Positions 8,646-23,509 of a stretch of 64,000 nt of DNA are shown here, one piece after another. Origin of the DNA: Yuukianura sp. NJ FZ-2021 (lineage: Eukaryota); assembly GCA_046563655.1 (NCBI GenBank), contig CM102283.1, positions 930,001 to 994,000 on the forward strand, in the 5' to 3' direction. Made by a program: the position numbers and the translations under genes. The notes under the pieces are model-generated. The model was not told where the DNA came from. It made no database searches and saw only the letters and a list, made by a program, of their open reading frames with translations. Positions within the stretch are counted from its first letter, which is position 1. The number at the start of each line of letters is the position of its first letter.

Positions 8646-9750
8646 TCTTCATGCTCTTTTGCAGAATATATTCCGCATTTGACGGTTAGGTTATTTGCAC
8701 TGAACCTTAACTTCTCACTGGTAGCAATTTCAATATGTGTTTCACATATGTTAGTTTTTTAGCTACGAGTAAAACTTTAAGCTTCTGAACATTCCGAGTT
8801 GCAAAACTGCATTTCTCATTATAATGAGGAATAAATAATCCTCAACAGAATCCACTTAAAATAATCCCAACACAAAGGAAAATAATAACCCCTTATTAAT
8901 CCCGCACAAGCAAAATCAATCTGTTTGATAATATGCAGGATACCTATTTCTGTCTTTTTTTATAATAATTCTTTCCAATAAATTTGCAAAACTGATCTTT
9001 GCCACATTCTGAAAATTTTTTCATGTACTTATGGAAAAGGTCATTTCGCCATGACGTTGGCCAAAAACGTAAATTCCTTGGGATGGTTAATTTTTTTTTG
9101 TAGATATTTTATATTCTGATGTGCCACATGATACCAATATGTTTAATTAATGTTTAAATATCTTCTCAAAGGTTAGTCTTACTTTATGCACTCTAACTTT
9201 GTACCTTACCTAATATTTTACAACATTTTGTTAATGCTTGATATAACAGATGTAAATTATCAACAACGTACTCGATTACAAATATCAATACCGCAGGTAC
9301 TAGAAATCCAAGCCATACAGCAAATGTTATGCAAATTTTATCACTCAAAGTTAGAGAATTTACAATATTGTTGTTCTTAGGAATTTTTGCCTTTTACGTA
9401 TCACATGGTAATAATCTAACTTTCTCCAAAATTTAACAATTCCAGCTTCCTCCATTGCCTTCCAAGCTGGCGAATTTTCGGATCCGTTACGCAATATAGT
9501 TACCATCCAACAGTTATATTTCCTAAACTATCGTCTCCTTTTGCAAGGGTTTTACCTTGATCATCTGAAATTTTCCATAAGGCGTATTCCATGTCAATTA
9601 CATTCGACCAGCCAGCGTAAGCTGCACCCATGATATAAATAATGTATCTACAACGGCTCGTAATATTTGTGGTACATAACTACTATTACTTCCTCTCAAC
9701 AAAGAAGGGTTTCGGATATTTTGGGTTTCTTGGCCCAGCCAAAACTGGTA

Positions 9751-9847
9751 GAAGGACTTGTTACGATCCTTCGAAAATTGGAAGTAATTTCAAACGAATC
9801 TTTTAGAAGAAAGTGTCCAATTTTCAAGGGATCGTAACAAGTCCTTC
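9751..9847. repeat. 32-bp inverted repeat with 33-bp spacer
   Basis: GAAGGACTTGTTACGATCCTTCGAAAATTGGA (9751-9782) matches the reverse complement of 9816-9847 with 2 mismatches. Confidence 0.9.
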
Positions 9848-9984
9848 ACATTGAATTCTTGTCGGACATGGGACACTTTTCGGACTTAGTCGCGTATAAA
9901 CCCGATGATTTGTTCTGAAATTCCATGGCAACCATAACGAGAATAATTCTCGTTACTTAATTATCAAATAAGAAAAGGAAATTA

Positions 9985-10464
9985 AGGAAATTGTGCAGCA
10001 CAAAAACGCAAAAGTGGAAATTGTGCAGCACAAAGAACACAAAAGTGGAAATTGTGCAGCACAAAGAACACAAAAGTGGAAATTGTGCAGCAGAAAGAAC
10101 GCAAAAGTGGAAATTGTGCAGTACAAAGAACGCGCACGTGGCCGGTTGAGGAACGTAGAAACGGAGAATTTTGGAATTGTGCAGCACAGAAAAACCAAAA
10201 ATTTGAACTTGTGCAACCAATGAACCGGAAAGATGGTAGTTGTGCAACCGAAAGACCCGAAATGTGGTTAGTTGTGCAACATAAAAACCGAAACGTGGCA
10301 GTTGTGCAATGCAAAAACCCGAAATGCCGACTTTGTGCAATGCGAAAACCCAGAAGGTGGTAATTGTGCAATGTAAAAATCCGAAAAGTGGTATTTGTGC
10401 ATTGTAAAAACACGAAAAGTGGAATTTGTGCACTATGAAAACCAGAAGGTGGAAATTGTGCATT
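9985..10464. repeat. ~30-bp minisatellite with TTGTGCA core
   Basis: About 15 units such as AAAAGTGGAAATTGTGCAGCACAAAGAACAC. The left units are nearly identical and the right ones are diverged. Confidence 0.95.
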
Positions 10465-13078
10465 TTAGGAAAACAATTTTGCTATAAGTACACACGGGTT
10501 GTGGGCCCAGCAATTTACATGAAGAGAAAGCGGAATGGGCCCAAAATCAGCCAATTCCCGTAGGTGTCCTTTTATCCACCAGAAATGCGGATTTTTTCCT
10601 AGAGTTGCATAGATCATTGGAATTACAATTTGCTCTGCATAATCTGGAATGTAATTAGGATAGTCTTTTGTTTCTTGATTCATGCTTTACAGTTTTTCCT
10701 TGCCGTCTTGTATTCCCATCAATCTCGTATCTCCTTTTGCTCCTTTTTCCATGTTCCTCTGAAGTATCTTATAACACCAAACTGTGGCCGTATATAAATC
10801 GTCAAATTTTTTGCTACCAAATGATCAAAAGTTGTTACAAGTGTTGGAACTCTAGGTGAAATTATATCAGTAGTGAAAACACTTCTGTAACCATTAGTAA
10901 CTATAATTAAGGCCAATGACATTGTACCTAAGATCCAATACATAGCGGGTAGACGGCGAGGGTTACCAGCGGATTCTATACTATGTTCTACCAATGTAGA
11001 ATACACTGTTAAATACCCATTACATTTTATACCTTTTACCTTTGATATAACGTTAGCTGTTACGGCCAAACCAAAAACAGTGATAACCAGAATATCCCAA
11101 ATATTTATTGTGAATGGGGCAGCTAAAGTTATAAAATCAGAAGTATCTTCTAGTAGACCGTCACAAGTTAAAAATATAAATTTTAAATTATATGAAATGT
11201 AATTATTGTTTTCAGGAGACTTAAAATTGACGGAAGGGTAATTACAATAGAGGTAATGATTTTTAGTGCTATTAGTCATTGCTGTATTAAGTAAAATGGA
11301 TTCCCATGTACCATGCTTTTATTTATAAGGTGACAAATACAAAACATGATGCTGGGTTCCACGCCATATCCAATTTTGGTGTTTGTCTACGCTCTCCACT
11401 GTTCCTTTAAACTAGTTTTTAGGATTTGTTAGCAAAATTGGTTTGTGGTATAAATGGATGCCTTGTTGGCAAATTACCCAACTGTGCCCAATTTCATAAG
11501 TGGCTGACCTCGCAATTTTATACGAGGAATACCCGTTAGAACCCCTGGCGTTATTTGACCTTGTGATGGTGTCCGAGAAATGCGTACTTGACCCCGATAC
11601 GGCATCCGAAAAATATTTGTTTGACCCCGATACTGTATCTACAGAATACTTGCTGGTCATTGGGGCGTTATGTAATGAGTAAACATGAAAGTGGTATAAG
11701 CTAAGGAAGTCGATTTCTCCATCCTATGCCGCTGTAATGTACCAGTGGTAAATTAGTGTTTCACTGTAAGGTGCAACCAATGAAAAGATGCTTCAAAGGC
11801 CCATTATATATCATTTAAACCAACACTAGCAAATTGAAATTTTCCTAAAAGCTCATGTCGCCATGGCCTTGGCCAGAGATATAAATACCATGGGATGGGT
11901 ATATTTTTTTCAGATATTCTTGATTCCAATATACCAAATGATGTGATGAGTAAAATGAAATTGAAACATTTGTATCTGAAATGTGGTTCTGAATGTATCA
12001 TTTTTTCATGTGCACCTAATGAATTGTAGAACCCTGCCCTGCTCTTGTTGCATCAAAAGTCAAATCTACTTTTGTTGTGAACCACATCTTGAGTAGTTAC
12101 TGGGAAGTTCAATGGTTCGAAATCTGTTGTGTTGCTGTTGATCAAGTGGATGTTACATTCGGTAGTAAATGGACTAAACCATGGATTTAAATCTGTCCAT
12201 TTCGATTTAGTGGTAGGTATCATACAATCAACAAGCAACAATACCCAACTACATACGAACCGAAACATTTTGAATTAAAAGTAAGCACTATTTATTTGAA
12301 ATATTGATGAAAACTGTTGACAATTTCTGTCTTCTGGCTAATATTTCTTGGCATTCAAACCAAAAAGAGTTCCACTGGGATTTTTACCAAAAAAATAAAC
12401 CAACGTATCAAAAATGAAATCCCAATGGCTTTATTATGATCATATGAACTTTAAAAAAGCACACCAAAATGTTCCTAAGGTAATATTGTTCATAGTCATT
12501 ATGTTGAATATGCAACGAATTTAATGCAGAAAAATAACTAGGGATCAAAAATAAAATGCAATCTAGTACAAATGACTATTGTTGCATGCAAACCATTGTT
12601 GAGTAAACAGAAGATGGAAGCTCTGAATATAAAGATTACACCAAGGATCGACTAATCGATTGTAAAAGTTCAATTACGAGTTATCGAAATCCGTATTTAT
12701 AATCGACATCGAAATTTGCAACCTTTAATTTTAATTTCATGCCAGTTTTGGTTACAGTTGATCGACTAAATTCAAATGATTGCCAGTTGAGTTTTAATCT
12801 TTTTTTAAAATTCTGTATTTGTGTTTTTGCTCACGCACTACCGCTATTACATCAATAGTACTTTATAGCATAATTACAACCTATATTTCATAAGCATCCC
12901 AAGCCAATCAGTATGTGTTTCATAAATATTTAAATGCCTTTTTTAAGTTTTTTGAATGTTCGCTTTATACCTAAAAGCCTCCAGTAGAAGACAGTTTTCG
13001 ATGCGCGCCGCCCGTAAAAACTGAAATAATATAAACAACCGGGTTTGTGTTAGAAGTTTTGCGGTACTCTGTATTTTA

Positions 13079-15121
13079 CTATTTAAGAATTTGCACTCTC
13101 GCTTTGGCCCTATCACTAAATATGTTACAACATTTTGTAAAGGTTTGATGTAACAGACGTAAATTATCCATAACGTACTCGACTACAAATGTCAATACTG
13201 AAGGTACTACTAGAAGTCCAAGCAACACTGCAAATGCTACCCAAATTTTATCACTCAAACTTAGGGTCTTTACAGCAATAATGTTGTTCCTGGGAATTTT
13301 AGTCTTTTCATATATCATAAGGTAATAATTATCTAAGTTTCTCCAAAATTTAACAATTCCCGCTTCCTCCATTGATTTCAAAGCTGGACGTATTTTCGGA
13401 TCTGTTACGCGGTACAGTTTCCATCCAGCGGTTATATTTCCTAAGCTATCTTTTCCTTTGGCAAGGGTTTTGCTACTTTGATCATCAGAAATTTTCCACA
13501 AGGCGTATTCTATGTCAATCATACTTGACCAGTCAGCGTAAGCTGCACTACAATTCTTGATTAACATAGTAAGTGGGCCTTGTTCTGTAATATTATTATA
13601 ATCAATATCATCCCACGGTACAAATAATTTGTCTACAACGTTTCGTATTATTTGTGGTACATAACTACTATTACTCTCTCTGACAAATTTTTTCCACGAG
13701 ATGATGTGCGGATTTTTTCCTAAAGATGCATATATCATTGGAACTATAACTAGCTTTGCATGATCCGGAGGGTAACTAGGATAATCTATCGTGTCTTCAT
13801 TAAAATTCATTTCCTTCTTGATAGTTTTTCCTTGCCGTCTTAAGTTTTCCCACGAATCTCGTATTTCCTTTTGCTCCTTTTTCCAATCTGTTTTATAGTG
13901 GCTTACACCACCATACTGTGGGCGTATATAAATCGTTAAATTCTTGGCTACCAAATGATCAAAAGTGGTAACAAGTGTTGGAACTCTAGGTGAAATTATA
14001 TCAGTGGTGAAACAGCTTCTGTAACCATTGGTAACAATAATAAAGCCCAATGACATTGTGCTTACGATCCAGTACATGGCAGGTAAACGATGTGGATTAC
14101 CAGCGGATTCTATATTATGTTCAACCAATGCAGAATACACAGTTAAAAACCCATTACATTTCAAACCATTGACCTTTGATACAACGTTAGCTGTTACAGC
14201 CAAACCAAAAAGTGCACTAACCAGAATAGCCCAAATATTTATTGTAAATGGAGTAACGAAACTTCTAAAATCTGAGGTATTTTCTAGTAGACCGTCACAA
14301 GTTAAAAATATAAATTTTAAATTAGTGGAGATGTAAGGTGTAGGCTCAACAACCATAAATTGGACGACAGGGTACATAATTAAATACGTAAAATTGTAAA
14401 AGTTAAAATTATTTTTATATTCACCAAACAGTTCCCTGGTCCAAATTGTGGTGCTATTAGTCATTGCTGTTTTAAGTAGAATGGATTCCCATGTACCTTG
14501 CTTGTATTTATAAGGCGACGAATACAAAACATTATACGGGGTTCCACTCCATATCCAATTTTGGTGTTTGTCTACTGCTTTCCATTGTTCTTTGAGACTA
14601 GTTAAATTTTTAGGATCTGTTAGCGAAATTAGTTGATGCGATAAATGGATGCACCGTTGACAAATTACCCAACTTTGCCCAATTTCATAAGTGTTTGACC
14701 TGGCAACATTATGCGAGGAATACCTGTTTGACCTATTGGCGGTATACAGGTTTGACCTTGTGATGCTATCCGAGAAATACGAAATTGACTTCGATACTGT
14801 ATCTGAAGAGTATTTGGTTGACTCCGATACGGTATCTGGAAAATACTTGCCAGCTCTAGTGCCGATATATAAGGAGTAAACAAGAAATTGGTATACGGTG
14901 CGAAAATCTATTCCTCCATACAATGTTGTTGCTTTATGGTACCAGTGGTGAATTAGTGTTTCACTGTAAGGTGCAACCAATGAAAAGATGCTGGAACGGT
15001 CCAGTACAAATTCGTTTAAACCAACATTCCCATTCCATTTAAGTTCATTTTGCCATGGCCTTGGCCAGAGATATAAATTCCGTGGGATGGGTATATTTTC
15101 TGCACATATTTTTGATTCTGG
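13079..15121 (-). pseudogene. 3' part (681 codons including stop) of an intronless divergent IR-like chemoreceptor gene split by the nested insertion
   Basis: Uninterrupted ORF with IR/iGluR-type topology: PFTINIWAILV (M1), FIIVTNGYRSCFTTDII (M3-like), SMEEAGIVKFW (end of S2) and LSLSDKIWVAFAVLLGLL..FVVE (M4). Confidence 0.8.
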
Positions 15122-15137
15122 TATATCAAATGATGGG

Positions 15138-15169
15138 AGTTCGATTTGAGATCCTGACGGAGACGGTCG
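15138..15169 (+). promoter_or_regulatory. Putative internal Inr + DPE Pol II promoter of the non-LTR element
   Basis: Taking the A of AGTTCG (15138) as +1, GGTCG (RGWYV consensus) lies exactly at +28..+32 (15165-15169). This layout is known from jockey/I/Doc-type LINE promoters. Confidence 0.55.
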
Positions 15170-15242
15170 CATCTTATTGCTGCTCTCTCTAATCATAGAT
15201 TGTATTCTAATTTGCTAAGTTGGGATTGTGACAATAGTGGAA

Positions 15243-16028
15243 ATGTCAAAGTTGCTCCGCTCCCCGACACTCAACCCGTACAACACCCCAAGGACCTCAA
15301 GGTCAACCCTTACTGCATCTAATTCGGATCTACTGCAGCCCTCCGCCTTAAAACGACCAGCTTCTTCACCGCTGACCAATGACGACAAAAAAAACAAGGA
15401 TTCAGCTCCACCCACTGACCCTCTGTCAGGCACTTTAGAAGAACAAATGCGTTTCTTAGTACGACAATTTCTAGAATGGCAACCGATGTGGGAAAAACTA
15501 AAAGGGATCGACACAGTTGACCCAATTGCAGTAAGTGAACGATTTACAGCCATTGACGAAGAACTGAACCGTGTCAACAAGAAGCTTATTGCCACAAACA
15601 TCATCATCGCCGGTCTTGACGAGACGAATGATGAATCATTTGAGACCCTATACGGTACGGTTCGTAACGTTTTTCAAAAACTGAGCCTTGCATCGCTTGA
15701 CTTCAGCCAATGCCGAAGATTAGGAAGGAAGACCAACAGACCCAGGCTTGTCCAAGTGCAGCTACTACGAGAACGAGATAAATTCACCATTTTAGAGCGG
15801 AAGTCTCAGCATCGCAACGATCCGTTCCTAAAGACAATTTTCATCAATCCGGAAAGAACGAAAATGGATCGCCAAAAAGAAGGAATTTTGAGAGCTGCCA
15901 GGAAACAACTACGAGACGACCACCCTGGAGCCAGGTTTCAGATTCGACAAGGCAAGATGACCATGGTAAATGGGAACTCAGTCAAAACATTTACAGTTGA
16001 CTCAGAAGGAGCCGTCCTTCCAGCCTAA
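15243..16028 (+). CDS. LINE ORF1-like RNA-binding protein (coiled coil + RRM + CTD, Transposase_22-like), 261 aa
   Basis: Intact ORF from ATG 15243 with NIIIAGLDE, CRRLGRK..RPRLVQVQL and IFINPERTKMDRQ motifs, typical of L1-like ORF1 carried by CR1/L2-group elements. Confidence 0.85.
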   Translation: MSKLLRSPTLNPYNTPRTSRSTLTASNSDLLQPSALKRPASSPLTNDDKKNKDSAPPTDPLSGTLEEQMRFLVRQFLEWQPMWEKLKGIDTVDPIAVSERFTAIDEELNRVNKKLIATNIIIAGLDETNDESFETLYGTVRNVFQKLSLASLDFSQCRRLGRKTNRPRLVQVQLLRERDKFTILERKSQHRNDPFLKTIFINPERTKMDRQKEGILRAARKQLRDDHPGARFQIRQGKMTMVNGNSVKTFTVDSEGAVLPA

Positions 16029-16281
16029 ATTTTTAACGCCAAAATTTTGTGTTTGTAATTTTTCTTTTCATCGACCCCACCTAAAATCACTTTAATGCCT
16101 AGTTTAGTCATGATCTAAGTTGAACTGTACTTTGAACTTTTTCCTAAACGAGTTAAAGTTAGAAGCTGATCATTGTAACATTGTAACAGTTAGCACATTC
16201 CTAACTCAGCAGCTCATCAACACAAAGAAATGTGACCCTGATTTAGCCTTATTGAGCAATTTCTCAACTTCAGCTTTCCAT

Positions 16282-16701
16282 TGTAGTGAAATGATAAAAT
16301 AAATGAAACAAAATCTTCACTACTAATGTCTTTGCAATGTTTTGCAATAGGAAAGGTTATTGAACTTTATTTCAACGGACAAAGTTTGTGACAAGGCATT
16401 AGGAGTAGGACACTAAGTCCTATTGACCAGAGGTCAGAAAGTAGAAAACAGAATGAATCTTGCTGGCCGGACTGAGCCCTTTTATAGGGTCTCAGCCGGA
16501 AACCAGCGGAGTAAAACAAAGTCGAATTCTACCCTACTTTGTATGTATGGAAATCATTTGTAGGCTTAACGTCTAATTACTACAACAAAAGACAAGTTGT
16601 ACATAGGTTGTGTTTGTTAAGAAAAGTATAACAATGATCTATTTTTAGCAATGAACTCTAATGAACTTTAGTGAATATGAAAAACTGACTGTTTCATAAC
16701 A
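16282..16701 (-). repeat. 3' LTR (420 bp)
   Basis: Matches 22621-23040 except for two single-T homopolymer indels seen by eye. TATAAAA and AATAAA are present on the minus strand. Confidence 0.97.
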
Positions 16702-16714
16702 TCCTACCCTCCTT
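16702..16714 (-). other. Polypurine tract
   Basis: AAGGAGGGTAGGA directly abuts the TG of the 3' LTR. Confidence 0.9.
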
Positions 16715-17485
16715 AGGGTTGCGACTCTCCTGAGTTCGCAAATCGAGGTCGTTGAATTAAGCAATTCTTAGCCTTGTGACCGAAGCGGTTACAGGAGAAG
16801 CAGCGACGGGGACGACGTCGATGGGGGGTTTGAGATGTCATGGATGCGACGGCTGCCTTGAGGTCTTTGACATCGGCCAGGACCACGACCGGTTTTCCAG
16901 ATGACTTCTGGTGGGTCTGAGGATTGAAGTGGGGCCGTTTAGGAGGTGGATCCAGGGCAGTCGACATCCGCATGAAGTTGAATGGTCGTCTGACGTGCGT
17001 AGTAGATTGGTTATGGTCCTCCCGTTGATCTCCAGTCAATGGCCTTGTCGTCGTCACCGTTTGTTTTTTAGGAATCCTCCACCGGTCAAAGTTCGTCTTC
17101 CCATCAGGCGGGTTGCAGTTTATGAGTAATGGCACGGACGGAGCCTTCGACATAGACGGAACCGGAACCGGAATGGTGGACGAAGTGGTGTTGACGGACA
17201 TCGGTGACATCGGAGTAGACAGGAGATGCTCGGAGACGGAATTACCTAGAAAAAGAAAAGAAAATATTAGTAAATGTTGATTTTAGAAAAAGTGGAAGGT
17301 GCAATGACCGTTCATTGCATGACACTCCACAGAGTGTCATAGGCAGTACGTAATATGACTAACAGTGAAATGTTGACCTTTGACACAAAAGAGGAATCTA
17401 AGTTGAAAAAAAAAATGAACTTACCATTGTCTTCATCAATGTGAAGAAGCTGTTCCTCTGTGTCCATGTCAATCTCACTAGTCAT
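16713..17485 (-). CDS. Spliced third gene of the gypsy element: join(17485-17425, 17245-16713), 197 aa, Arg-rich/CCHC zinc-knuckle protein
   Basis: Donor G|GTAAGT (17424), branch-like TACTAAT (17272-17266) and polypyrimidine + TAG acceptor (17246). Splicing joins MTSEIDMDTEEQLLHIDEDN-G in frame to the 16713-17210 ORF, which ends HRRRPRRCFSCNRFGHKAKNC...*. Confidence 0.75.
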
Positions 17486-20400
17486 ACTGCCAATCACCGT
17501 ATCGGTCAGGAGCCTTCCTTTTACGAGTTGATCTTCTTGTAGGGGCAGTGACCCTTGGTGGAGGAGATGGTGGAGCAGAGATTTCTTCCTCGGAGGACGA
17601 TGAAATTGAGACAAAGTCGTCTCCTTCATTTTCAGTCCTATTTATAGGGTCGAGGTCAATCACTTCACTATCACCAGCACTGTCACTGTCTGAGTCTACG
17701 TGACTTACTCGTCTAGGCAATGACCTGGACGAATGTCCACTAATTTCCCTACTGGAAACACTCTTGTTATGTTTTGAATTTTTACTTTTGTAACTTTTTG
17801 GTGACTTAAAATCAGAAGTTTCAGCTGATCGTGTATGAGAATGAGTGGAGCGAGTGGACTTGCTATGACTCACTGACTGCTCCTTCTTCCTTCCCACTGG
17901 CGATGAAAGAGAAACTTTTGGTGCATCTTTGTGCTTGTCTAGAGATTTCACTTTTCTACTCAGCTCATCAGTGAACTCACTTTCGCTACTTTCACTGTCA
18001 GAGCTGGGCATAAATTCTGAATTAAAATGTTCTAAATCTCTGACATGCACAATTACCTTTTTTGACTTACTATTTAGCTTTTTAATTTCATAATTGACTG
18101 GACTTGTTTGTTTTAAAATTTTGTAAGGTCCATCTTTTTGTGCAATGAACGCTTTTGAGAGGCCTTTCTTTTTAATAGGTTTTGACCTTAAAACAAGTTC
18201 GCCAACTTGAAAATCATGTTGATGCCTATTCTTATTGACTCGGGATTTTGACTTTTCATGATTTTCTTTGGATTTTAATTGAGCTTGGTGTCTATTATAT
18301 TCTAATTCTTCAAAATCTAGTTCTTGGTCAGAATTAAAATTCGGAAGCTGCAAATCTATCGGTAAAACTGCTTCTCGACCAAAAACCAAATAAAATGGGG
18401 AAAAGTCAGTTGATGAATGCTTTTTAATGTTGTAAGCTAATGTCGCTTGCTCTAAGCATAAATCCCAGTTTTTGTGATTTTCATCAACTGTTTTGGCAAT
18501 AATTTTCTTGACAGTTTTGTTACATCTTTCTGTCATTCCATTGGCTTGCGGATGATATGGAGCTGTGAATTTTAGCTTAAAGCTAAATTCTTCTGCTGCA
18601 GCTTTTACTAAATTTGCAGTAAAGTGTCTTCCTCTATCAACCACAAATTCCTTTGGAAGAGAGTGAGTGTAAATAATCTTGGACTTAATGGCTTTTACCA
18701 CCTCTTCTGCTGTCGCACTTGGTGCGGCAACAGTTTCTGAGTATCTGGTGAAGTGGTCAATGAAAACAATTGCATATTTGTTGCCATTTTCTGACTTTAC
18801 AAAGGGTCCAATCCAATCAATTCCCACTCTTTCGAAGGGTTTCGTCACCTCAGGAAAACTTTGCATCAAACCATACTCAGGACCAATTCTTTTCCTAAAT
18901 TTCTGACAAACTTCACACCCTAGGATATATTTTCTTGTATCACGGTACATTCCTTTCCAATGAAACCTACTTCGGACTGATTCCCAAGTTTTTGTAATTC
19001 CAAAATGGCCTGCTAAATCTCCACAATGCAGAGAATCTAAAACGGCTTTTCTTAAGCATTTTGGAACGACTATTTTCCATTGGTTGCCTGAAGGTGCAAA
19101 ATTTGGAAATAATAAAATTCCATTTTGTAAACTATAGTCCTGTAATTGTTTTACATTAGGTTGAGGTATATTATATTCATCATTTTCCACAGACTCAATG
19201 TAAAGAATAATCGATTTCAAAAAGTGGTCAGATCTCTGTTTGACTTTTAATTCGTTTATTGTAAACAAGTCAGGGACGCCATCCAAAACAAGAACTTCAG
19301 AGCTGTCCATGCTCTCTGGTGGGTCGACTGGGTAACGTGACAAGGGGTCAACGTCATTCGCAGTTTTCCCTGGTCTATGTACAATAGTCATGTCTTGATT
19401 TTGCAGTGTAATTGACCATCTAGCCAGCCTACTATTTACATCTTTAATGGAAAACAACCATTTTAGGGCATAGTGATCAGTGTACACTGTGTATTTGGTT
19501 CCATAAATGTATGGCCTAAACTTTTTAACAGAAAAGACTACTGCTAGACATTCTTGTTCGGGTCCCGAATATTTTCGTTCCGCTTCTGTCATACTTCGGC
19601 TAGCGTAAGCTATGACGCAGGGTTTTCCATTTTGGATTTGGACCAGGGTTGCCCCGATTCCATACCCACTGCTATCACAGTGCACTTCCGTTGGGACATT
19701 GTCCATTGGGTATGACAAAATTGGACTTTTGACCAGACATGATTTTAATTTTTGAAAGGCTTCATTTTGTTTTTCACCCCAGTCAAATTTTTGATTTTTT
19801 CTTGTCAAAAGAGTGAGGGGGATTGCAATTCTACCAAAATTTTGGATGAAGCGTCTATAATAACCGCACATTCCTAAAAATGATTTAATGTCGGTTTGAT
19901 TTTTTGGAATTGGAAAATTATCAATTACATTTGTTTTATCCGGATCTACTTGAATTCCATTTTCTGAAATAATGTGGCCCAGATAATTAAGTTTATTGGT
20001 TCCAAAAATGCACTTGCTGATTTTCAGGGTTAAGCCCGCTTCTTTCAGTCGGTTTAGAACAGTAAAGAGTCTAGAATTGTGCTCCTCAAAAGTTCTTCCC
20101 CAAACAACAAGGTCATCCAAGTAAACGAGTACAATATTCCATTTCAAGTTTAATAAAACCAAATCCATTAAATATTGGAAACTAGATGGAGCATTACAGA
20201 GTCCCATAGGAAGTCTCTTGAATTGGTAAAGGCCGTCAGGAGTTATAAATGCCGTTTTCTCTTTGTCTTTTGGGTCTAACTCAATTTGGTAGAACCCAGA
20301 CAACAAATCTAGTACAGTAAAGTACTTGGCACCTGACAGTCTATCCAATGCATCGTCCATTCTAGGCAATGGATAAGAGTTTTTCTTGGTAATTGCATTT

Positions 20401-21712
20401 AATTTTCTATAGTCAATCACCAGTCTTGAACTTCCGTCCTTTTTAGGAACGAGTATTACTGGAGATGACCAAGGAGAAATTGATTCTTCGATAATATCAC
20501 TTTCAAGAAGCTTATTTATTTTTTCCTTAATTTTGCTTCTTTGAGGATAGGAAACTCGATAGGGATAATTCCTAATTGGAGGATTTGTGCCTGTGTCAAT
20601 TTGATGACGAACAAGGCTTGTTTTCCCTAATTCGGTCTCATCTTCCGCAAATAGCGTTGGAAATTGATTAATCAAATTTCTCAGCTCATTTTTCTCATCA
20701 TTGGACAAATTGTCTCCCAATTTTGGCTCAAAATTTCCAAAAGTTTGTTCACCTGAATCGATGGTGTCGCCATCTTCAGTAAATGAATAAATGTTTTTCT
20801 TTGGTGGACAAATTTCGCCATAAGCAATTGTTGTGCCTTTGTTCAAGGTCACTTCAAAATCATTTAAATTTGTAATCCATAATTCGGTTTCATGATCCCT
20901 GACAATTGAATAGACATAAGGTTGAAGTAAGGCCTGTGTCTCATAGAGTGTCATGTTGGGATTCATAATAATTGAACCAGAAATAATTTTGTCTGACTTA
21001 ACAGCGACCTTGGAGGTCATTCTGGCTTGAAGCCGTACTGTTTTTGTCAGTTTAAATTTATTTGGTTGAGGTTTTTCCTCATTTTTTGAACATTCGGTAA
21101 TTGGTATTTCATCATCAATATTAGTAATTTCCTGTTTATTTAAGTTTCTTGTTGTCCAATCAGTCCCAAGTAGCATTTTTGGCTTGAGTCCCTTCATTAT
21201 GTGAAATCCCCAAATTGTGAGAACACCGTTGAAGTGGAACCTCAATTCAACCATTTCATCTATGCTTGTTTGGCTGTTGGCTGTATTGACCGTGACAGGT
21301 GGAATTTTGTATCTTTTGTGAATTTGACCTTTGAGGTCATTCAGGAAGTCCAAGCCGATGCTGCTAAAATTAGCTCCTTCATCAACTTGAATTTTGAAAG
21401 TTTTGTCACCGAACGTAAGTTCGGTAAAAAGTTTTGGACCGTACCGCCATTTTCTGAACGGTACTTGCACTTTAGTGCCCTCTACAGAGGTTTCCGGAAC
21501 GGATTCCGTAAAGTAATTGATTTTATTTAAATTTTGTTTAACTTTACTAGCATAACTTTCGCTAGTAGTTGATTTATTTTGATTTTTTGAAAAATTTGAA
21601 TTTTCAAATATTAAAGTATTTTTTCCTATTTTAGAATTGTTTAGTTTTTGTAAACTGAAATTATACGCTGTTTTTAAATTGGGGTGTGCGTAATCACCCG
21701 TGACAATTAGTT
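17478..21712 (-). CDS. pol: Pol polyprotein (protease, RT, RNase H, integrase, long Ser/basic tail), in the -1 frame relative to gag
   Basis: VDEGA (PR), SPWSSP/IDYRKLN/YLDD (RT), CDSSGYGIGA/YTDH (RH), H..GHFG..CEVC, IDWIG/VDRG/TERCN (IN), GPY and RRSTRKRKAPDRY. The frame stays open upstream of 21470 up to the gag stop region. Confidence 0.97.
17639..17646 (-). promoter_or_regulatory. Putative internal TATA box for the third gene
   Basis: GACCCTATAAATA lies within the pol 3' end and shares the GACCCTATAAA context with the LTR TATA. The first ATG after the expected TSS (~17615) is 17485. Confidence 0.5.
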
Positions 21713-22594
21713 TTTTGTGTTTGTCTCCTCAGTTTGTTCCTCGGGTAAAACTGCTGAGGAGAAAGAAGCACTTCCCGATTTGGTTTTGTTTTTATGCCAG
21801 CAGTCATCCAATGTGTGCCCTGGCTTTTTGCAAAATGTGCAAAATTTTCGTTTTTTGAAATGCTGATTTGAATTTTTATTCAAATCAGTGTCCGACGTTG
21901 AAGGTGTTTCCTTCTCGCCACTGGAATTTGAATTTGGTTTAGATTTTTGTGTTCCAGAACTGGAACTACTAGAATTTGCATTTTGGAATTGACCTCGTCT
22001 GTCTTGAAACGAAGGTTTTTCGCATTTTCTTAGTTTTTGCAAAATTTCGGCAGGTGACTTAGGGTCAACAAGGGTCATCATGTTTCTCATAGAAACTGGT
22101 AAGCCCTTAATCAATTTTTCAACTTGTTTTTCGGCTGACATGTCGGGGTCAATGACCGACAGACATGACAGTCGTTTGGCGACATACTCAGATGGAGTGT
22201 CGCAGTTAACAAGAAGAATTCCCTTTAATTTTTTCTTCATTTCTAATTTGACCTCATCGGGGTCATAAAAAGATCGGAGCTCAGCTTTGAGCTCTGTCCA
22301 TCTTGTGGCTGCATTGGCCAAGGTCAAGTCACGAATAAACTTGGCCTGCGACCAGCGCCACCATTCCTGTGCTTCTCCTTCCATCAATTGATGGAAGTTC
22401 AGGATCAGCGTCACGCTGTCCAAAGCACCTGACGCCAATAGGGCATCCAACCTCAGGGTCAACAGGTCAACGTTCGATTTGCCATCAAATAGAGGCACAG
22501 AACGGACCACCGCCTTAAGGTCATTTACTCTGGGCAACGCATGCGTTGACCCAGGGGTCATTGTTTGAGCATTTTCGCTTCCTGTGGAAGCCAT
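21707..22594 (-). CDS. gag: Gag (capsid + CCHC nucleocapsid knuckle), 295 aa
   Basis: VPLFDGKS, MEGEAQEWW, LIKGLP and CTFCKKPGHTLDDC motifs. Confidence 0.93.
   Translation of the reverse strand: MASTGSENAQTMTPGSTHALPRVNDLKAVVRSVPLFDGKSNVDLLTLRLDALLASGALDSVTLILNFHQLMEGEAQEWWRWSQAKFIRDLTLANAATRWTELKAELRSFYDPDEVKLEMKKKLKGILLVNCDTPSEYVAKRLSCLSVIDPDMSAEKQVEKLIKGLPVSMRNMMTLVDPKSPAEILQKLRKCEKPSFQDRRGQFQNANSSSSSSGTQKSKPNSNSSGEKETPSTSDTDLNKNSNQHFKKRKFCTFCKKPGHTLDDCWHKNKTKSGSASFSSAVLPEEQTEETNTKN
21710..21716 (-). promoter_or_regulatory. -1 ribosomal frameshift slippery site A AAA AAC
   Basis: The heptamer immediately precedes the gag TAA. The -1 frame reads without a stop into pol. A GGGTG/CACCC stem lies about 10 nt downstream. 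Confidence 0.85.
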
Positions 22595-22602
22595 AGGATT
22601 CA

Positions 22603-22618
22603 GCAGCTCGTACCACCA
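22603..22618 (-). other. Primer-binding-site-like sequence
   Basis: TT then TGGTGGTACGAGCTGC directly after the 5' LTR. The cognate tRNA was not identified. Confidence 0.6.
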
Positions 22619-22620
22619 AA

Positions 22621-23040
22621 TGTAGTGAAATGATAAAATAAATGAAACAAAATCTTCACTACTAATGTCTTTGCAATGTTTTGCAATAGGAAAGGTTATT
22701 GAACTTTATTCAACGGACAAAGTTTGTGACAAGGCATTAGGAGTAGGACACTAAGTCCTATTGACCAGAGGTCAGAAAGTAGAAAACAGAATGAATCTTG
22801 CTGGCCGGACTGAGCCCTTTTTATAGGGTCTCAGCCGGAAACCAGCGGAGTAAAACAAAGTCGAATTCTACCCTACTTTGTATGTATGGAAATCATTTGT
22901 AGGCTTAACGTCTAATTACTACAACAAAAGACAAGTTGTACATAGGTTGTGTTTGTTAAGAAAAGTATAACAATGATCTATTTTTAGCAATGAACTCTAA
23001 TGAACTTTAGTGAATATGAAAAACTGACTGTTTCATAACA
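22621..23040 (-). repeat. 5' LTR (420 bp)
   Basis: On the minus strand it starts TGTTATG and ends CACTACA, followed by the PBS-like site and gag. Confidence 0.97.
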
Positions 23041-23113
23041 CCATCAAGACGATTAATGCATGATCCTGTAATTCGAACTCCCTGTGACCCGTTTAGAGGC
23101 AAATGATTTTTTG

Positions 23114-23142
23114 GCTCCATGGGCTTCGGGCCCGTAGGGAGC
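23114..23142 (+). other. 3' stem-loop of the non-LTR element
   Basis: GCTCC-ATGGGC-TTCGG-GCCCGT-AG-GGAGC, about 12 nt before AATAAA and the A tail. Confidence 0.75.
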
Positions 23143-23170
23143 GGCTACATACAAATAAAAAAAAAATATA

Positions 23171-23509
23171 TATATCAAATGATGTGATAAGTAAAATGTA
23201 ATTGAAACATTTCATTTTGAAGTGTGGTTCTGGATATACCATTTTTTCATGTGGGACTAATGAATTGTAGAACCCTGGCATACTCTGGTTTAACCAAAAG
23301 TCGAATCCACTCTCCATGTATACCACATCTTGCGTAGTAATTGGAAAATTGAATGGTTCAAAATCTATTTTGTTGGTGTTGATCAAGTGGATGTTACATT
23401 CGGTAGTAAATGGACTAAACCATGGATTTAAATCTATCCATTCTGATTTAGCAGTAGGTATCATACAACCAACGAACAACAATATGCAACTACATACAAA
23501 CCGAAACAT
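23171..23509 (-). pseudogene. 5' part (113 codons, with signal peptide) of the same split IR-like gene
   Basis: ATG at 23509 (MFRFVCSCILLFVGC), matching the paralog start at 12268. It joins in frame to 15121 (LLITSFDI|PESKI) to give a 793-aa ORF. Confidence 0.85.

Follow-up and report, generated by a model that had tools for sequence, protein, structure and literature searches.

The window, a 64,000-nucleotide stretch of contig CM102283.1 from Yuukianura sp. NJ FZ-2021, contains a short retroelement that is probably a full-length "half-LINE," derived from an arthropod LINE family, non-autonomous, and encoding ORF1 only. The half-LINE retains the 5' terminus of the parent family, a gene predicted to encode an L1-type ORF1p, and a 3' module; the endonuclease/reverse transcriptase (RT) gene has been lost. 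In the 3' module, a box whose sequence complements the 5' end precedes a conserved GC-rich hairpin, and a short A-rich stretch closes the element.

Boundaries, insertion site, and the nested gypsy

The coordinates of the unit and its surroundings are given in Table 1. Once the nested gypsy is taken out, the unit comprises 1,146 + 126 = 1,272 bp (15136-16281 joined to 23045-23170), and its 3' non-coding part comprises 253 + 126 = 379 nt. These counts bear out the initial annotation, which had described a ~1272-bp unit with a 14-bp target-site duplication (TSD), an intact 261-aa ORF1, and about 380 nt of 3' sequence; the two TSD copies are identical at all 14 positions. Its statement that the unit leaves no room for an endonuclease or RT was likewise upheld. 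No further sense-strand ORF of at least 80 aa was found in the two joined segments, tblastn with the ORF2 of relatives gave no match in the window, and the 3'UTR, compared by tblastx with the ORF2 regions of three ORF2-bearing relatives (L001, L002, and L006, described below), showed no ORF2 remnant and no match below E 0.2. On the antisense strand, a 130-aa ORF at 15215-15607 overlaps ORF1. Both halves of the unit were also compared with the window by blastn, and a second copy was absent from it.

Table 1. Features of the half-LINE, the nested gypsy, and the interrupted host ORF (positions in the window)
Feature	Position	Strand	Details
Host ORF, downstream part	13079-15135	-	continues from 23509-23171 after removal of the insert
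Left TSD copy	15122-15135	.	TATATCAAATGATG, 14/14 identical to 23171-23184
5'UTR	15136-15242	+	terminus GGAGTTCGA at 15136-15144; A at 15138 taken as +1
ORF1	15243-16028	+	261 aa, intact
3'UTR, first part, to the gypsy insertion point	16029-16281	+	
Gypsy 4-bp duplication	16278-16281 and 23041-23044		CCAT
Gypsy-type LTR retrotransposon, nested	16282-23040	-	foreign to the half-LINE
Gypsy LTRs	16282-16701 and 22621-23040		100% identity over three blocks (90, 113, and 225 nt) that single-base indels shift relative to one another
3'UTR, second part, and element end	23045-23170	+	
Complementary box	23073-23081	+	TCGAACTCC, matching the reverse complement of 15136-15144 (5' terminus) exactly
GC-rich two-part hairpin	23113-23142	+	GGCTCC...GGGAGC; conserved core CCATGGGC...CCC..AGGG
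AATAAA and A-rich end	23154-23170	+	AATAAA at 23154-23159, overlapping A10 run at 23157-23166, then TATA
Right TSD copy	23171-23184	.	TATATCAAATGATG

Removing 15136-23184 reopens a host reading frame on the minus strand that runs through the junction for 838 codons, or for 793 if counted from the first methionine. A lead from the Atlas links this ORF to a divergent arthropod family of ionotropic-receptor-like proteins. The unit lies in antisense orientation within a coding exon of this receptor-like gene, and the perfect TSD and the open host frame make recent activity of the element plausible.

The gypsy, whose minus-strand ORFs encode a gag of 295 aa and a pol of 1,258 aa, is probably young and would have been inserted after the half-LINE, splitting it at 16281/16282. 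Since it separates ORF1 from the 3' module, the present copy of the half-LINE is probably no longer mobile. Gypsy-free copies were found in public sequencing runs, where contigs join 16281 straight to 23045; in two runs from two studies (X2 and X4), loose ends after 16281 read CAAGACGATT, which is the sequence of 23045-23054. The runs also contained variants, diverged by 10-12%, that extend over ORF1 and retain the passage from its stop codon into the 3'UTR.

The ORF1 protein and its relatives

A word-indexed protein search with ORF1 returned zero matches at an E of ≤1e-3, and an exhaustive HMMER search returned 310 relatives at the same threshold. A profile of 67 ORF1 sequences matched the human L1 ORF1p structure 2yko at E 2.1e-5 (2yko/2ykp, E 2e-5) and, more weakly, the RRM structure 2w7a at E 0.0025 and the structure 2ldy at E 0.0035. 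The N terminus of the protein is disordered (residues ~1-60) and leads into two helices (65-115), which are followed by an RRM (~119-203) and then by a C-terminal domain (~207-260); the AlphaFold model (pLDDT 84) places helices at 65-115 ahead of a beta-alpha-beta RRM and the C-terminal domain. When the model was searched with Foldseek, the top 10 matches were human L1 ORF1p chains throughout (best E, 1.3e-8), and 182 to 202 columns aligned with the chains of the human ORF1p trimer at a target-normalized TM of 0.49 to 0.64. Profile and model agree in predicting an L1-type ORF1p with a coiled coil, an RRM, and a C-terminal domain, an architecture that Khazina and Weichenrieder are said to have described as L1-type ("type II"). 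The Pfam search of ORF1 at an E of ≤1 produced only a sub-threshold GDI and no family match; Transposase_22, the L1 ORF1p family, did not match ORF1 at its gathering score and was absent among the 25 families listed, out of 36 Pfam families, for the 67 relatives.

Related loci were sought in metagenomes with an alignment of the 12 closer ORF1 sequences. Of the eight loci found, three are ORF1-only (L003, L004, and L005), three carry ORF1 directly upstream of an ORF2 with APE/RT (L001, L002, and L006), and two were too short to be classified. The ORF1 proteins of L003, L004, and L005 are 34-35% identical to that of the window unit. Both ends of these elements agree with those of the window unit, in the 5' terminus and in a 3' hairpin accompanied by an A-rich end, and their 3'UTRs, measuring ~410-520 nt from the ORF1 stop to the hairpin, lack ORF2 remnants; L005, at 53% identity, is laid out as L003 and L004 are. 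The layout of these three elements, their shared ends, and the gypsy-free copies and diverged variants in the sequencing runs support the proposal, made in the initial annotation, of an ORF1-only non-autonomous family, as do the L1-type ORF1p, the purifying selection on its gene, and the 5' terminus common to the ORF2-bearing relatives. TSDs of L003 and L005 were sought by eye and none was convincing, the only candidate being a 6-nt AGGTAT at L005.

Among the ORF2-bearing loci, L002 and L006 match PF14529 and L001 matches PF03372, and the best named relative of the L002 ORF2 is annotated as "jockey" in Folsomia candida. Compared with known structures, the related ORF2 gave near-equal E-values for R2 and L1 ORF2p. 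An ORF2 alignment identified two loci in genome contigs, both LINE RTs of 27% identity from a single MAG, and zero loci in viral contigs; no family member turned up when viral and genome contigs were scanned.

Purifying selection acts on ORF1. Its dN/dS, put forward earlier as a check on the family, was 0.095 between the ORF1-only L003 and L004, at a dS of 1.43 that places synonymous sites near saturation. Among the ORF1 variants in the sequencing runs, 15 of the 19 listed sites were synonymous, against an expectation of 24% (P = 6e-7). The ORF1 tree contains two well-supported clades (95/98), one grouping the window with L001 and L002 and the other grouping L003-L005 with L006. Because ORF1-only and ORF2-bearing elements are mixed in each clade, the low dN/dS could partly reflect selection in autonomous ancestors. 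The ORF1-only state occurs in both clades and therefore arose at least twice. HAL1 has originated repeatedly from autonomous relatives, and the tree suggests a similarly repeated origin in the family described here.

The two ends of the element

The 5' end of the unit has an Inr-like GGAGTTCG and, at +28 to +32 (15165-15169), a DPE-like GGTCG, in keeping with the Inr/DPE spacing that had been noted there. The window unit and L001-L006 are homologous from the terminal GAGT onward and are preceded by unrelated DNA; the 5' terminus is common to the window unit and the ORF2-bearing L001, L002, and L006. In three of the four public runs (X1, X2, and X3), contigs start at 15137. The pattern [AG][CG][AT]CG was found at +28 to +32 in all six elements tested (the window unit and L001-L005), with a chance of 0.0044 per element; L006, judged by eye, has the terminal block and ACACC at the corresponding place. 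The 5' terminus looks like an internal promoter built of an Inr and a downstream element. Promoters of this kind, internal and composed of Inr and DPE, drive the Drosophila LINEs jockey, I, F, and Doc, which the present family resembles in having a start-site motif in the first bases and a block at fixed spacing at +28 to +32. It differs from them in that RGWYV is fully matched in just two of the six elements, the other four having ACACG, and the promoter is putative.

At the 3' end, the GC-rich stem-loop reported in the initial annotation was recovered as a hairpin that, folded alone, reaches -18.5 kcal/mol, a stability matched by 5 of 200 shuffles (z = -2.46); folding of the whole 126-nt 3' piece was no stabler than that of shuffles (z = -0.40). 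The hairpin is present in all four ORF1-only elements, where 17 of the 35 columns do not vary and pairing extends to 92% of cells, as opposed to 28-69% when the alignment is slid. Covariation among the four elements was limited to one compensatory pair and was not significant, as its score was reached by 276 of 500 shuffles. Outside the hairpin, the 3'UTRs of the ORF1-only elements could not be aligned. The hairpin was not found in L006, which is internally deleted, and the contigs of L001 and L002 stop within ORF2. The AATAAA and A tail described previously were confirmed in part: the AATAAA and a run of 10 A's are there, but this "tail" is short, is followed by TATA, and may be templated. 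L003 and L005 similarly end in A7 and then TAT(A); at the end of L004 there are (AAATA)-like repeats. A pattern search for the hairpin in viral contigs gave at least 118 stretches, which we attribute to chance; among the 118 loci recorded from this search, there was no ORF1 or ORF2 relative and no strict combination of hairpin and A run.

The arrangement recalls the "stringent-type" LINE/SINE partners reportedly described by Kajikawa and Okada in 2002, eel UnaL2 and UnaSINE1. In both cases conservation within the 3'UTR is confined to a stem-loop that stands beside a short repeat or an A-rich end, the pattern expected of an RT recognition signal common to autonomous and non-autonomous partners. 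As a difference, neither positions 22900-23300 of the window nor L003-L005 had an Rfam match at an E of ≤1, LINE 3' elements being among the families covered, and recognition of the hairpin by RT is putative.

All four ORF1-only elements carry, ~30-40 nt upstream of the hairpin, a reverse complement of their 5' terminus that spans the first 9-25 nt of the transcript. The boxes in L003, L004, and L005 lie at the homologous place and match the respective 5' termini of these elements. The box covaries with the 5' end across lineages, from GGAGTTCGA/TCGAACTCC in the window to GAGTCTGGGTTGAG/CTCAACCCAGACTC in L005. By energy alone, the duplex between the ends of the window unit was equaled by 71 of 400 shuffles; the case for complementarity in this unit stands because an exact 9-mer occurs at the homologous place, with a chance of ~0.004. 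The boxes suggest, from sequence comparison, that the 5' and 3' ends of the RNA pair. It is conceivable, if rather doubtful, that the family uses this pairing as a cis-acting signal. If it does, the resulting panhandle would place the 5' end beside the RT entry site and could mark full-length RNAs as templates or aid precise 5' joining, and the full-length insertion of such tiny elements with their promoter intact would be explained. A full-text literature search found no description of such pairing for LINEs, which is not proof of absence.

Origin of the ORF1-only state and known half-LINEs

ORF1-only copies might instead be recurrent dead-end by-products of autonomous elements, derived from transcripts with internal deletions or aberrant processing and each retrotransposed once, without a self-propagating ORF1-only lineage; the conserved ORF1 and both conserved ends would then be the outcome of selection on autonomous masters. 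Such an origin would account for the presence of the ORF1-only state beside ORF2-bearing members in both clades (95/98). It would also account for a 31-nt motif located just after the ORF1 stop in L003 and in the inter-ORF spacer of L001 (84% identity, E 0.003), as expected from a deletion of ORF2. We nevertheless consider it unlikely. L003 and L004 are both ORF1-only despite a dS of 1.43, with dN/dS at 0.095; the same layout is seen in L005 at 53% identity; the 10-12% diverged variant in the runs retains the junction of the ORF1 stop and 3'UTR; the 3'UTRs are free of ORF2 remnants; and three of the six loci that can be judged are ORF1-only. The motif after the ORF1 stop was also considered as a splice site, which was ruled out by the lack of a GT in L001 and L003.

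A processed retrocopy of a cellular (domesticated) ORF1p-like gene, made by LINE machinery, would likewise be marked by a TSD, by AATAAA with a short run of A's, and by one intact ORF. This origin is highly improbable given that the first bases of the unit are the conserved 5' terminus of the ORF2-bearing LINEs L001, L002, and L006, that the 3' hairpin recurs in distant ORF1-only elements, that diverged copies exist in the same samples, and that the A run is just 10 nt long and gives way to TATA, an ending also seen in L003 and L005. Only the absence of ORF2 suggests that a full-length LINE lost its interior in a single event at the present locus, after it had been inserted. We find that account barely credible, as the layout is shared by L003-L005 and as other run contigs have the same ORF1 stop/3'UTR junction and the same continuity from 16281 to 23045. 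The situation that the initial annotation had set against its own proposal, in which all other copies carry ORF2 and the deletion is peculiar to this one, is not what was found, since L003-L005 are ORF1-only.

For a half-LINE that depends on an autonomous relative, the following course of events can be envisaged. RNA polymerase II would initiate at the A of the terminal GAGT, and ORF1p, an RNA-binding chaperone, would be translated and then coat its own RNA. The ORF2 protein of the autonomous relative would recognize the 3' hairpin and the A-rich end and nick the target, and target-primed reverse transcription would copy the RNA, leaving the 14-bp duplication. The antisense insertion into the receptor-like coding exon would have come first, and the split by the young gypsy later.

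To our knowledge, ORF1-only LINE derivatives are rare, and usually just three families are cited (HAL1, HeT-A, and Ag-Sponge). HeT-A, of the Jockey clade, is directed to telomeres and extends over several kilobases, including a long 3'UTR, whereas the window element measures 1.27 kb and is inserted in a gene. Half-LINEs are thus already known, and the present element is a well-documented new example, not a new kind. In PMC5786205, "bipartite" non-autonomous LINEs in which ORF1 is present form a recognized class, exemplified by HAL1 ("half-L1") of mammals (Smit 1999; Bao and Jurka 2010), the CR1-clade-derived Ag-Sponge of Anopheles gambiae (Biedler and Tu 2003), and HeT-A of Drosophila telomeres (Pardue et al. 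1996), all as cited there. According to the same paper, HeT-A is similar in encoding only a Gag/ORF1-like protein and in relying on the RT of another element, and Ag-Sponge in being an ORF1-only non-autonomous LINE derivative of an arthropod; the comparison with Ag-Sponge, stated to derive from the CR1 clade, is by description. With HAL1, the window family shares its non-autonomous nature, a LINE-derived 5' part, a putatively LINE-derived 3' part, a sole protein of the L1 ORF1p type, and a presumed supply of ORF2p in trans. In contrast to HAL1, it resides in an arthropod, its related ORF2 matches PF14529/PF03372 and has a "jockey" relative, so that an L1-clade origin is not established, and it has a conserved hairpin with a short A-rich end in place of a long poly(A), together with the 5'-3' complementary box.

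Being small, defined to the base at both ends, and represented by ORF1-only and ORF2-bearing relatives, this soil-arthropod family offers a compact natural system. It can be used to address why a non-autonomous element retains ORF1, which RNA signals the ORF2 protein requires, and whether any pairing of the 5' and 3' ends contributes to full-length insertion. For genome annotation, a 1.3-kb unit with one "hypothetical protein" gene inside a receptor gene is here a transposon.

An ORF1-only unit split by a gypsy element

The half-LINE, an ORF1-only derivative of a LINE, was confirmed in all of its initially described anatomy. It shows a target-site duplication (TSD), a 1272-bp unit in two halves, a 261-aa ORF1, and 379 nt of 3' sequence terminating in a hairpin, AATAAA, ten A residues, and TATA. 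ORF1 is the sole sense-strand ORF of the unit, and a search of the window with the ORF2 of relatives found no ORF2-related stretch, in agreement with the claim of the initial annotation that the unit holds no endonuclease or reverse transcriptase (RT). No second copy of the unit was present within the window.

Coordinates of the half-LINE, the nested gypsy element, and the interrupted host gene in the window
Feature	Positions	Strand	Details
TSD	15122-15135; 23171-23184		TATATCAAATGATG
Half-LINE, 5' half	15136-16281		1146 bp
Half-LINE, 3' half	23045-23170		126 bp
ORF1	15243-16028		sense strand of the unit
5'-3' complementary pair	15136-15144 with 23073-23081		9/9 paired
3' hairpin	23113-23142		
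Gypsy-type LTR element	16282-23040	minus (gag and pol ORFs)	separates the half-LINE halves
Gypsy LTRs	16282-16701; 22621-23040		420 nt each
Host ORF	13079-15135; 23171-23509	minus	793 aa from first M, insert removed
Host paralogue	~9208-12268		in several frames

The gypsy element has open ORFs for gag (295 aa) and pol (1258 aa) and its own 4-bp duplication, CCAT. Its two LTRs are 100% identical over blocks of 90, 113, and 225 nt, which are offset by single-base indels, and the element looks very young. The same LTR was found beside other flanks in contigs from public sequencing runs, so further copies of this gypsy exist. The half-LINE itself was present in four public runs (X1 to X4) from two studies with two organism labels. 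In X2 and X4, the loose end after 16281 was CAAGACGATT, identical to 23045-23054. Thus, gypsy-free copies or alleles exist, and the gypsy had been excised correctly from the sequence in the initial reading.

When 15136-23184 was removed by script, a minus-strand frame of 838 codons ran open through the junction; therefore, the boundaries of the half-LINE are exact, and a coding exon was hit. The host ORF had no Pfam match. An Atlas look-up, to be taken as a lead only, placed its protein at 0.97 to unnamed arthropod clusters and at 0.92 to 'Ionotropic receptor', hinting at features of divergent arthropod ionotropic-receptor-like proteins. The upstream neighbour is a paralogue with 64-69% identity, and many diverged copies of the host ORF occur in the run contigs, which points to a tandem, multi-copy family of receptor-like genes.

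Related loci and the origin of the ORF1-only state

A scan of metagenome contigs for relatives yielded eight loci, L001 to L008, of which L007 and L008 were too short for their layout to be judged. In L001, L002, and L006, a second ORF that encodes endonuclease and/or RT domains lies ~80-190 nt downstream of ORF1. For the L002 type, the full-length ORF2 comprises 1050 aa (P0153); among its named relatives, the best is a protein from Folsomia candida that carries a jockey-type RT annotation (41% identity). L006 is decayed at 1038-2379, where ORF1 is frameshifted and the endonuclease part leads straight into the C-terminal portion of the RT region. In L003, L004, and L005, by contrast, ORF1 is followed by ~410-520 nt without a trace of ORF2 and then by a hairpin and an A-rich end. 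These three loci, with the same layout and ends as the window element, support its original reading as an ORF1-only non-autonomous family. The ORF1 of the window was 41% identical to that of L001 and 33-35% identical to those of the remaining loci; identity was 79% between L003 and L004 and 53% between L003 and L005.

In a maximum-likelihood tree of the eight ORF1s, the window element grouped with the ORF2-bearing L001 and L002 (support 95/98), whereas L003 to L005 grouped with the ORF2-bearing L006 and with L007. ORF1-only members thus occur in both groups, which implies two or more origins of the ORF1-only state here. Repeated origin has likewise been reported for HAL1. After the ORF1 stop, L003 matched the inter-ORF spacer of L001 over 31 nt (84%, E 0.003, blastn). 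This AT-rich motif, ..GATAAGTT.A.ATTTT.., lies at 878-908 in L003, ~3886-3916 in L001, and ~1027-1045 in L005, and may be a remnant of a signal at the ORF1-ORF2 junction. Its presence in both L003 and the L001 spacer fits an origin by loss of ORF2.

The ORF1-only forms might be repeatedly made anew, which we regard as improbable, or might propagate on their own, which we consider likely. The dN/dS of ORF1, a measure named in the initial annotation, was 0.095 at a dS of 1.43 between L003 and L004, both of which are ORF1-only. Among the variant sites listed from the public runs, 19 fell in ORF1, with 14 at third codon positions and 15 synonymous (24% expected, P 6e-7); beyond the sites listed, the 2.4-kb stretch as a whole holds another 268 differences. 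Run contigs that were 10-12% diverged covered 15420-15812, 15529-15789, and 15913-16145, the last of these running across the ORF1 stop and 117 nt into the UTR. Other run contigs joined 15164 to 15451 (X1 and X3) or to 15465 (X2), so that at least the first 26 nt of the element were kept and the remaining 5'UTR and the first ~69 codons of ORF1 were skipped or replaced. These joints point to variants, or a variant subfamily, with another N-terminal region.

A passage in PMC5786205 lists HeT-A (Jockey clade), HAL1 (L1 clade), and Ag-Sponge (CR1 clade) as bipartite non-autonomous LINEs in which ORF1 is present and suggests that the proteins of such elements act jointly with those of an autonomous partner. 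The half-LINE, ORF1-present and non-autonomous, is of the same kind; it is an additional member of a class already known. Beyond class membership, its interest lies in the deep conservation of its layout, the base-exact promoter-like spacing, and a box in the 3'UTR complementary to the 5' terminus.

Conserved termini

When the 5' regions of the window element and L001 to L005 were aligned, the upstream DNA was unrelated until a common terminal GAGT, which L006 also carries. Counting from the A of GAGT, [AG][CG][AT]CG was found at +28 to +32 in all six aligned elements (GGTCG in the window, AGTCG in L001, and ACACG in L002 to L005), with a chance of ~0.004 per element. The DPE consensus is RGWYV at +28 to +32, and two of the six elements match it in full. 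Conservation of this block in 6/6 elements backs the Inr/DPE spacing initially proposed, as a predicted promoter feature. One to three G residues precede AGT, depending on the element (15136-15138 in the window; L001 to L005), and run contigs from X1, X2, and X3 start at 15137, one base inside the window copy. Untemplated addition at the cap would fit a variable 5' G, but the 3' boxes carry matching C runs.

At the other end, the four ORF1-only elements (the window and L003 to L005) have GG..CCATGGGC...CCC..AGGG in common, with 17 of 35 hairpin alignment columns invariant; outside the hairpin, their 3'UTRs could not be aligned. In the proposed two-part stem, 92% of cells were paired, compared with 28-69% when the stem was slid. 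The window hairpin folded alone at -18.5 kcal/mol (z -2.46). Covariation was limited to one compensatory pair and was not significant against shuffles, no Rfam family matched the hairpin-bearing 3' ends, and no 3' hairpin was found in L006. Judged from sequence, both ends of the half-LINE are family signals.

Upstream of the hairpin, all four ORF1-only elements contain the reverse complement of their own 5' terminus. The pair is exact in L005 (180-193 with 1484-1497, 14/14) and spans 24-25 nt with small bulges in L003 and L004. The duplex energies of L003 (-31.8 kcal/mol) and L005 (-30.8 kcal/mol) were reached by 0/400 shuffled 5' ends each, that of L004 (-29.2 kcal/mol) by 2/400, and that of the window (-20.6 kcal/mol) by 71/400; for the window, the argument rests on its 9-mer, which is exact and homologous in position. 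Its own pair was better than the pairs formed with sequences of the other lineages (-13.1 to -17.6). Where the 5' end varies, so does the box, TTCGA with TCGAA versus TCTGG with CCAGA, which looks like co-variation. We read this complementarity as putative end-to-end pairing of the RNA, with a function that is likewise putative. Full-text literature searches for comparable 5'-3' complementarity in LINEs returned nothing relevant.

In all three complete ORF1-only ends, TAT(A) comes after the A run (window 23167-23170, L003 ~1408-1413, L005 ~1598-1602). Therefore, the A-rich 3' terminus, with UAU(A) as its last bases, may be templated rather than added post-transcriptionally as poly(A).

The ORF1 protein

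ORF1 matched no Pfam family, failing the Transposase_22 model, and a word-indexed protein search gave no match. An exhaustive HMMER search recovered 310 cluster representatives at E<=1e-3, and 146 of the 150 listed were no longer than 326 aa. A profile of 67 of these relatives matched human LINE-1 ORF1p (2yko, E 2.1e-5; RRM 2w7a, E 0.0025; 2ldy, E 0.0035). An AlphaFold model built from the same alignment (pLDDT 84) begins with a disordered N-terminus, followed by two helices, an RRM, and a C-terminal domain. When the PDB was searched with Foldseek, the top ten matches were all human L1 ORF1p chains, nine from trimer crystal entries and one from an RRM-CTD solution structure (top E 1.3e-8; 151-202 aligned columns). 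By the profile matches, the model, and the Foldseek results, ORF1 thus has L1-type ORF1p architecture, despite failing Transposase_22.

Within the otherwise variable, disordered N-terminus (residues ~5-45, window 15255-15380, alignment A2), most relatives carry R-S/T-P near the start and K-R-x(2-4)-S/T-P, which are candidate proline-directed kinase sites. Such sites are required in human ORF1p. Two of the 150 listed relatives are long, P0113 from Cordylochernes scorpioides (936 aa) and P0115 (843 aa), with the ORF1-like part close to the C-terminus (residues 778-914 and 614-752, respectively). One of them is annotated as an RNA-directed DNA polymerase, and both probably reflect gene models in which adjacent elements were fused.
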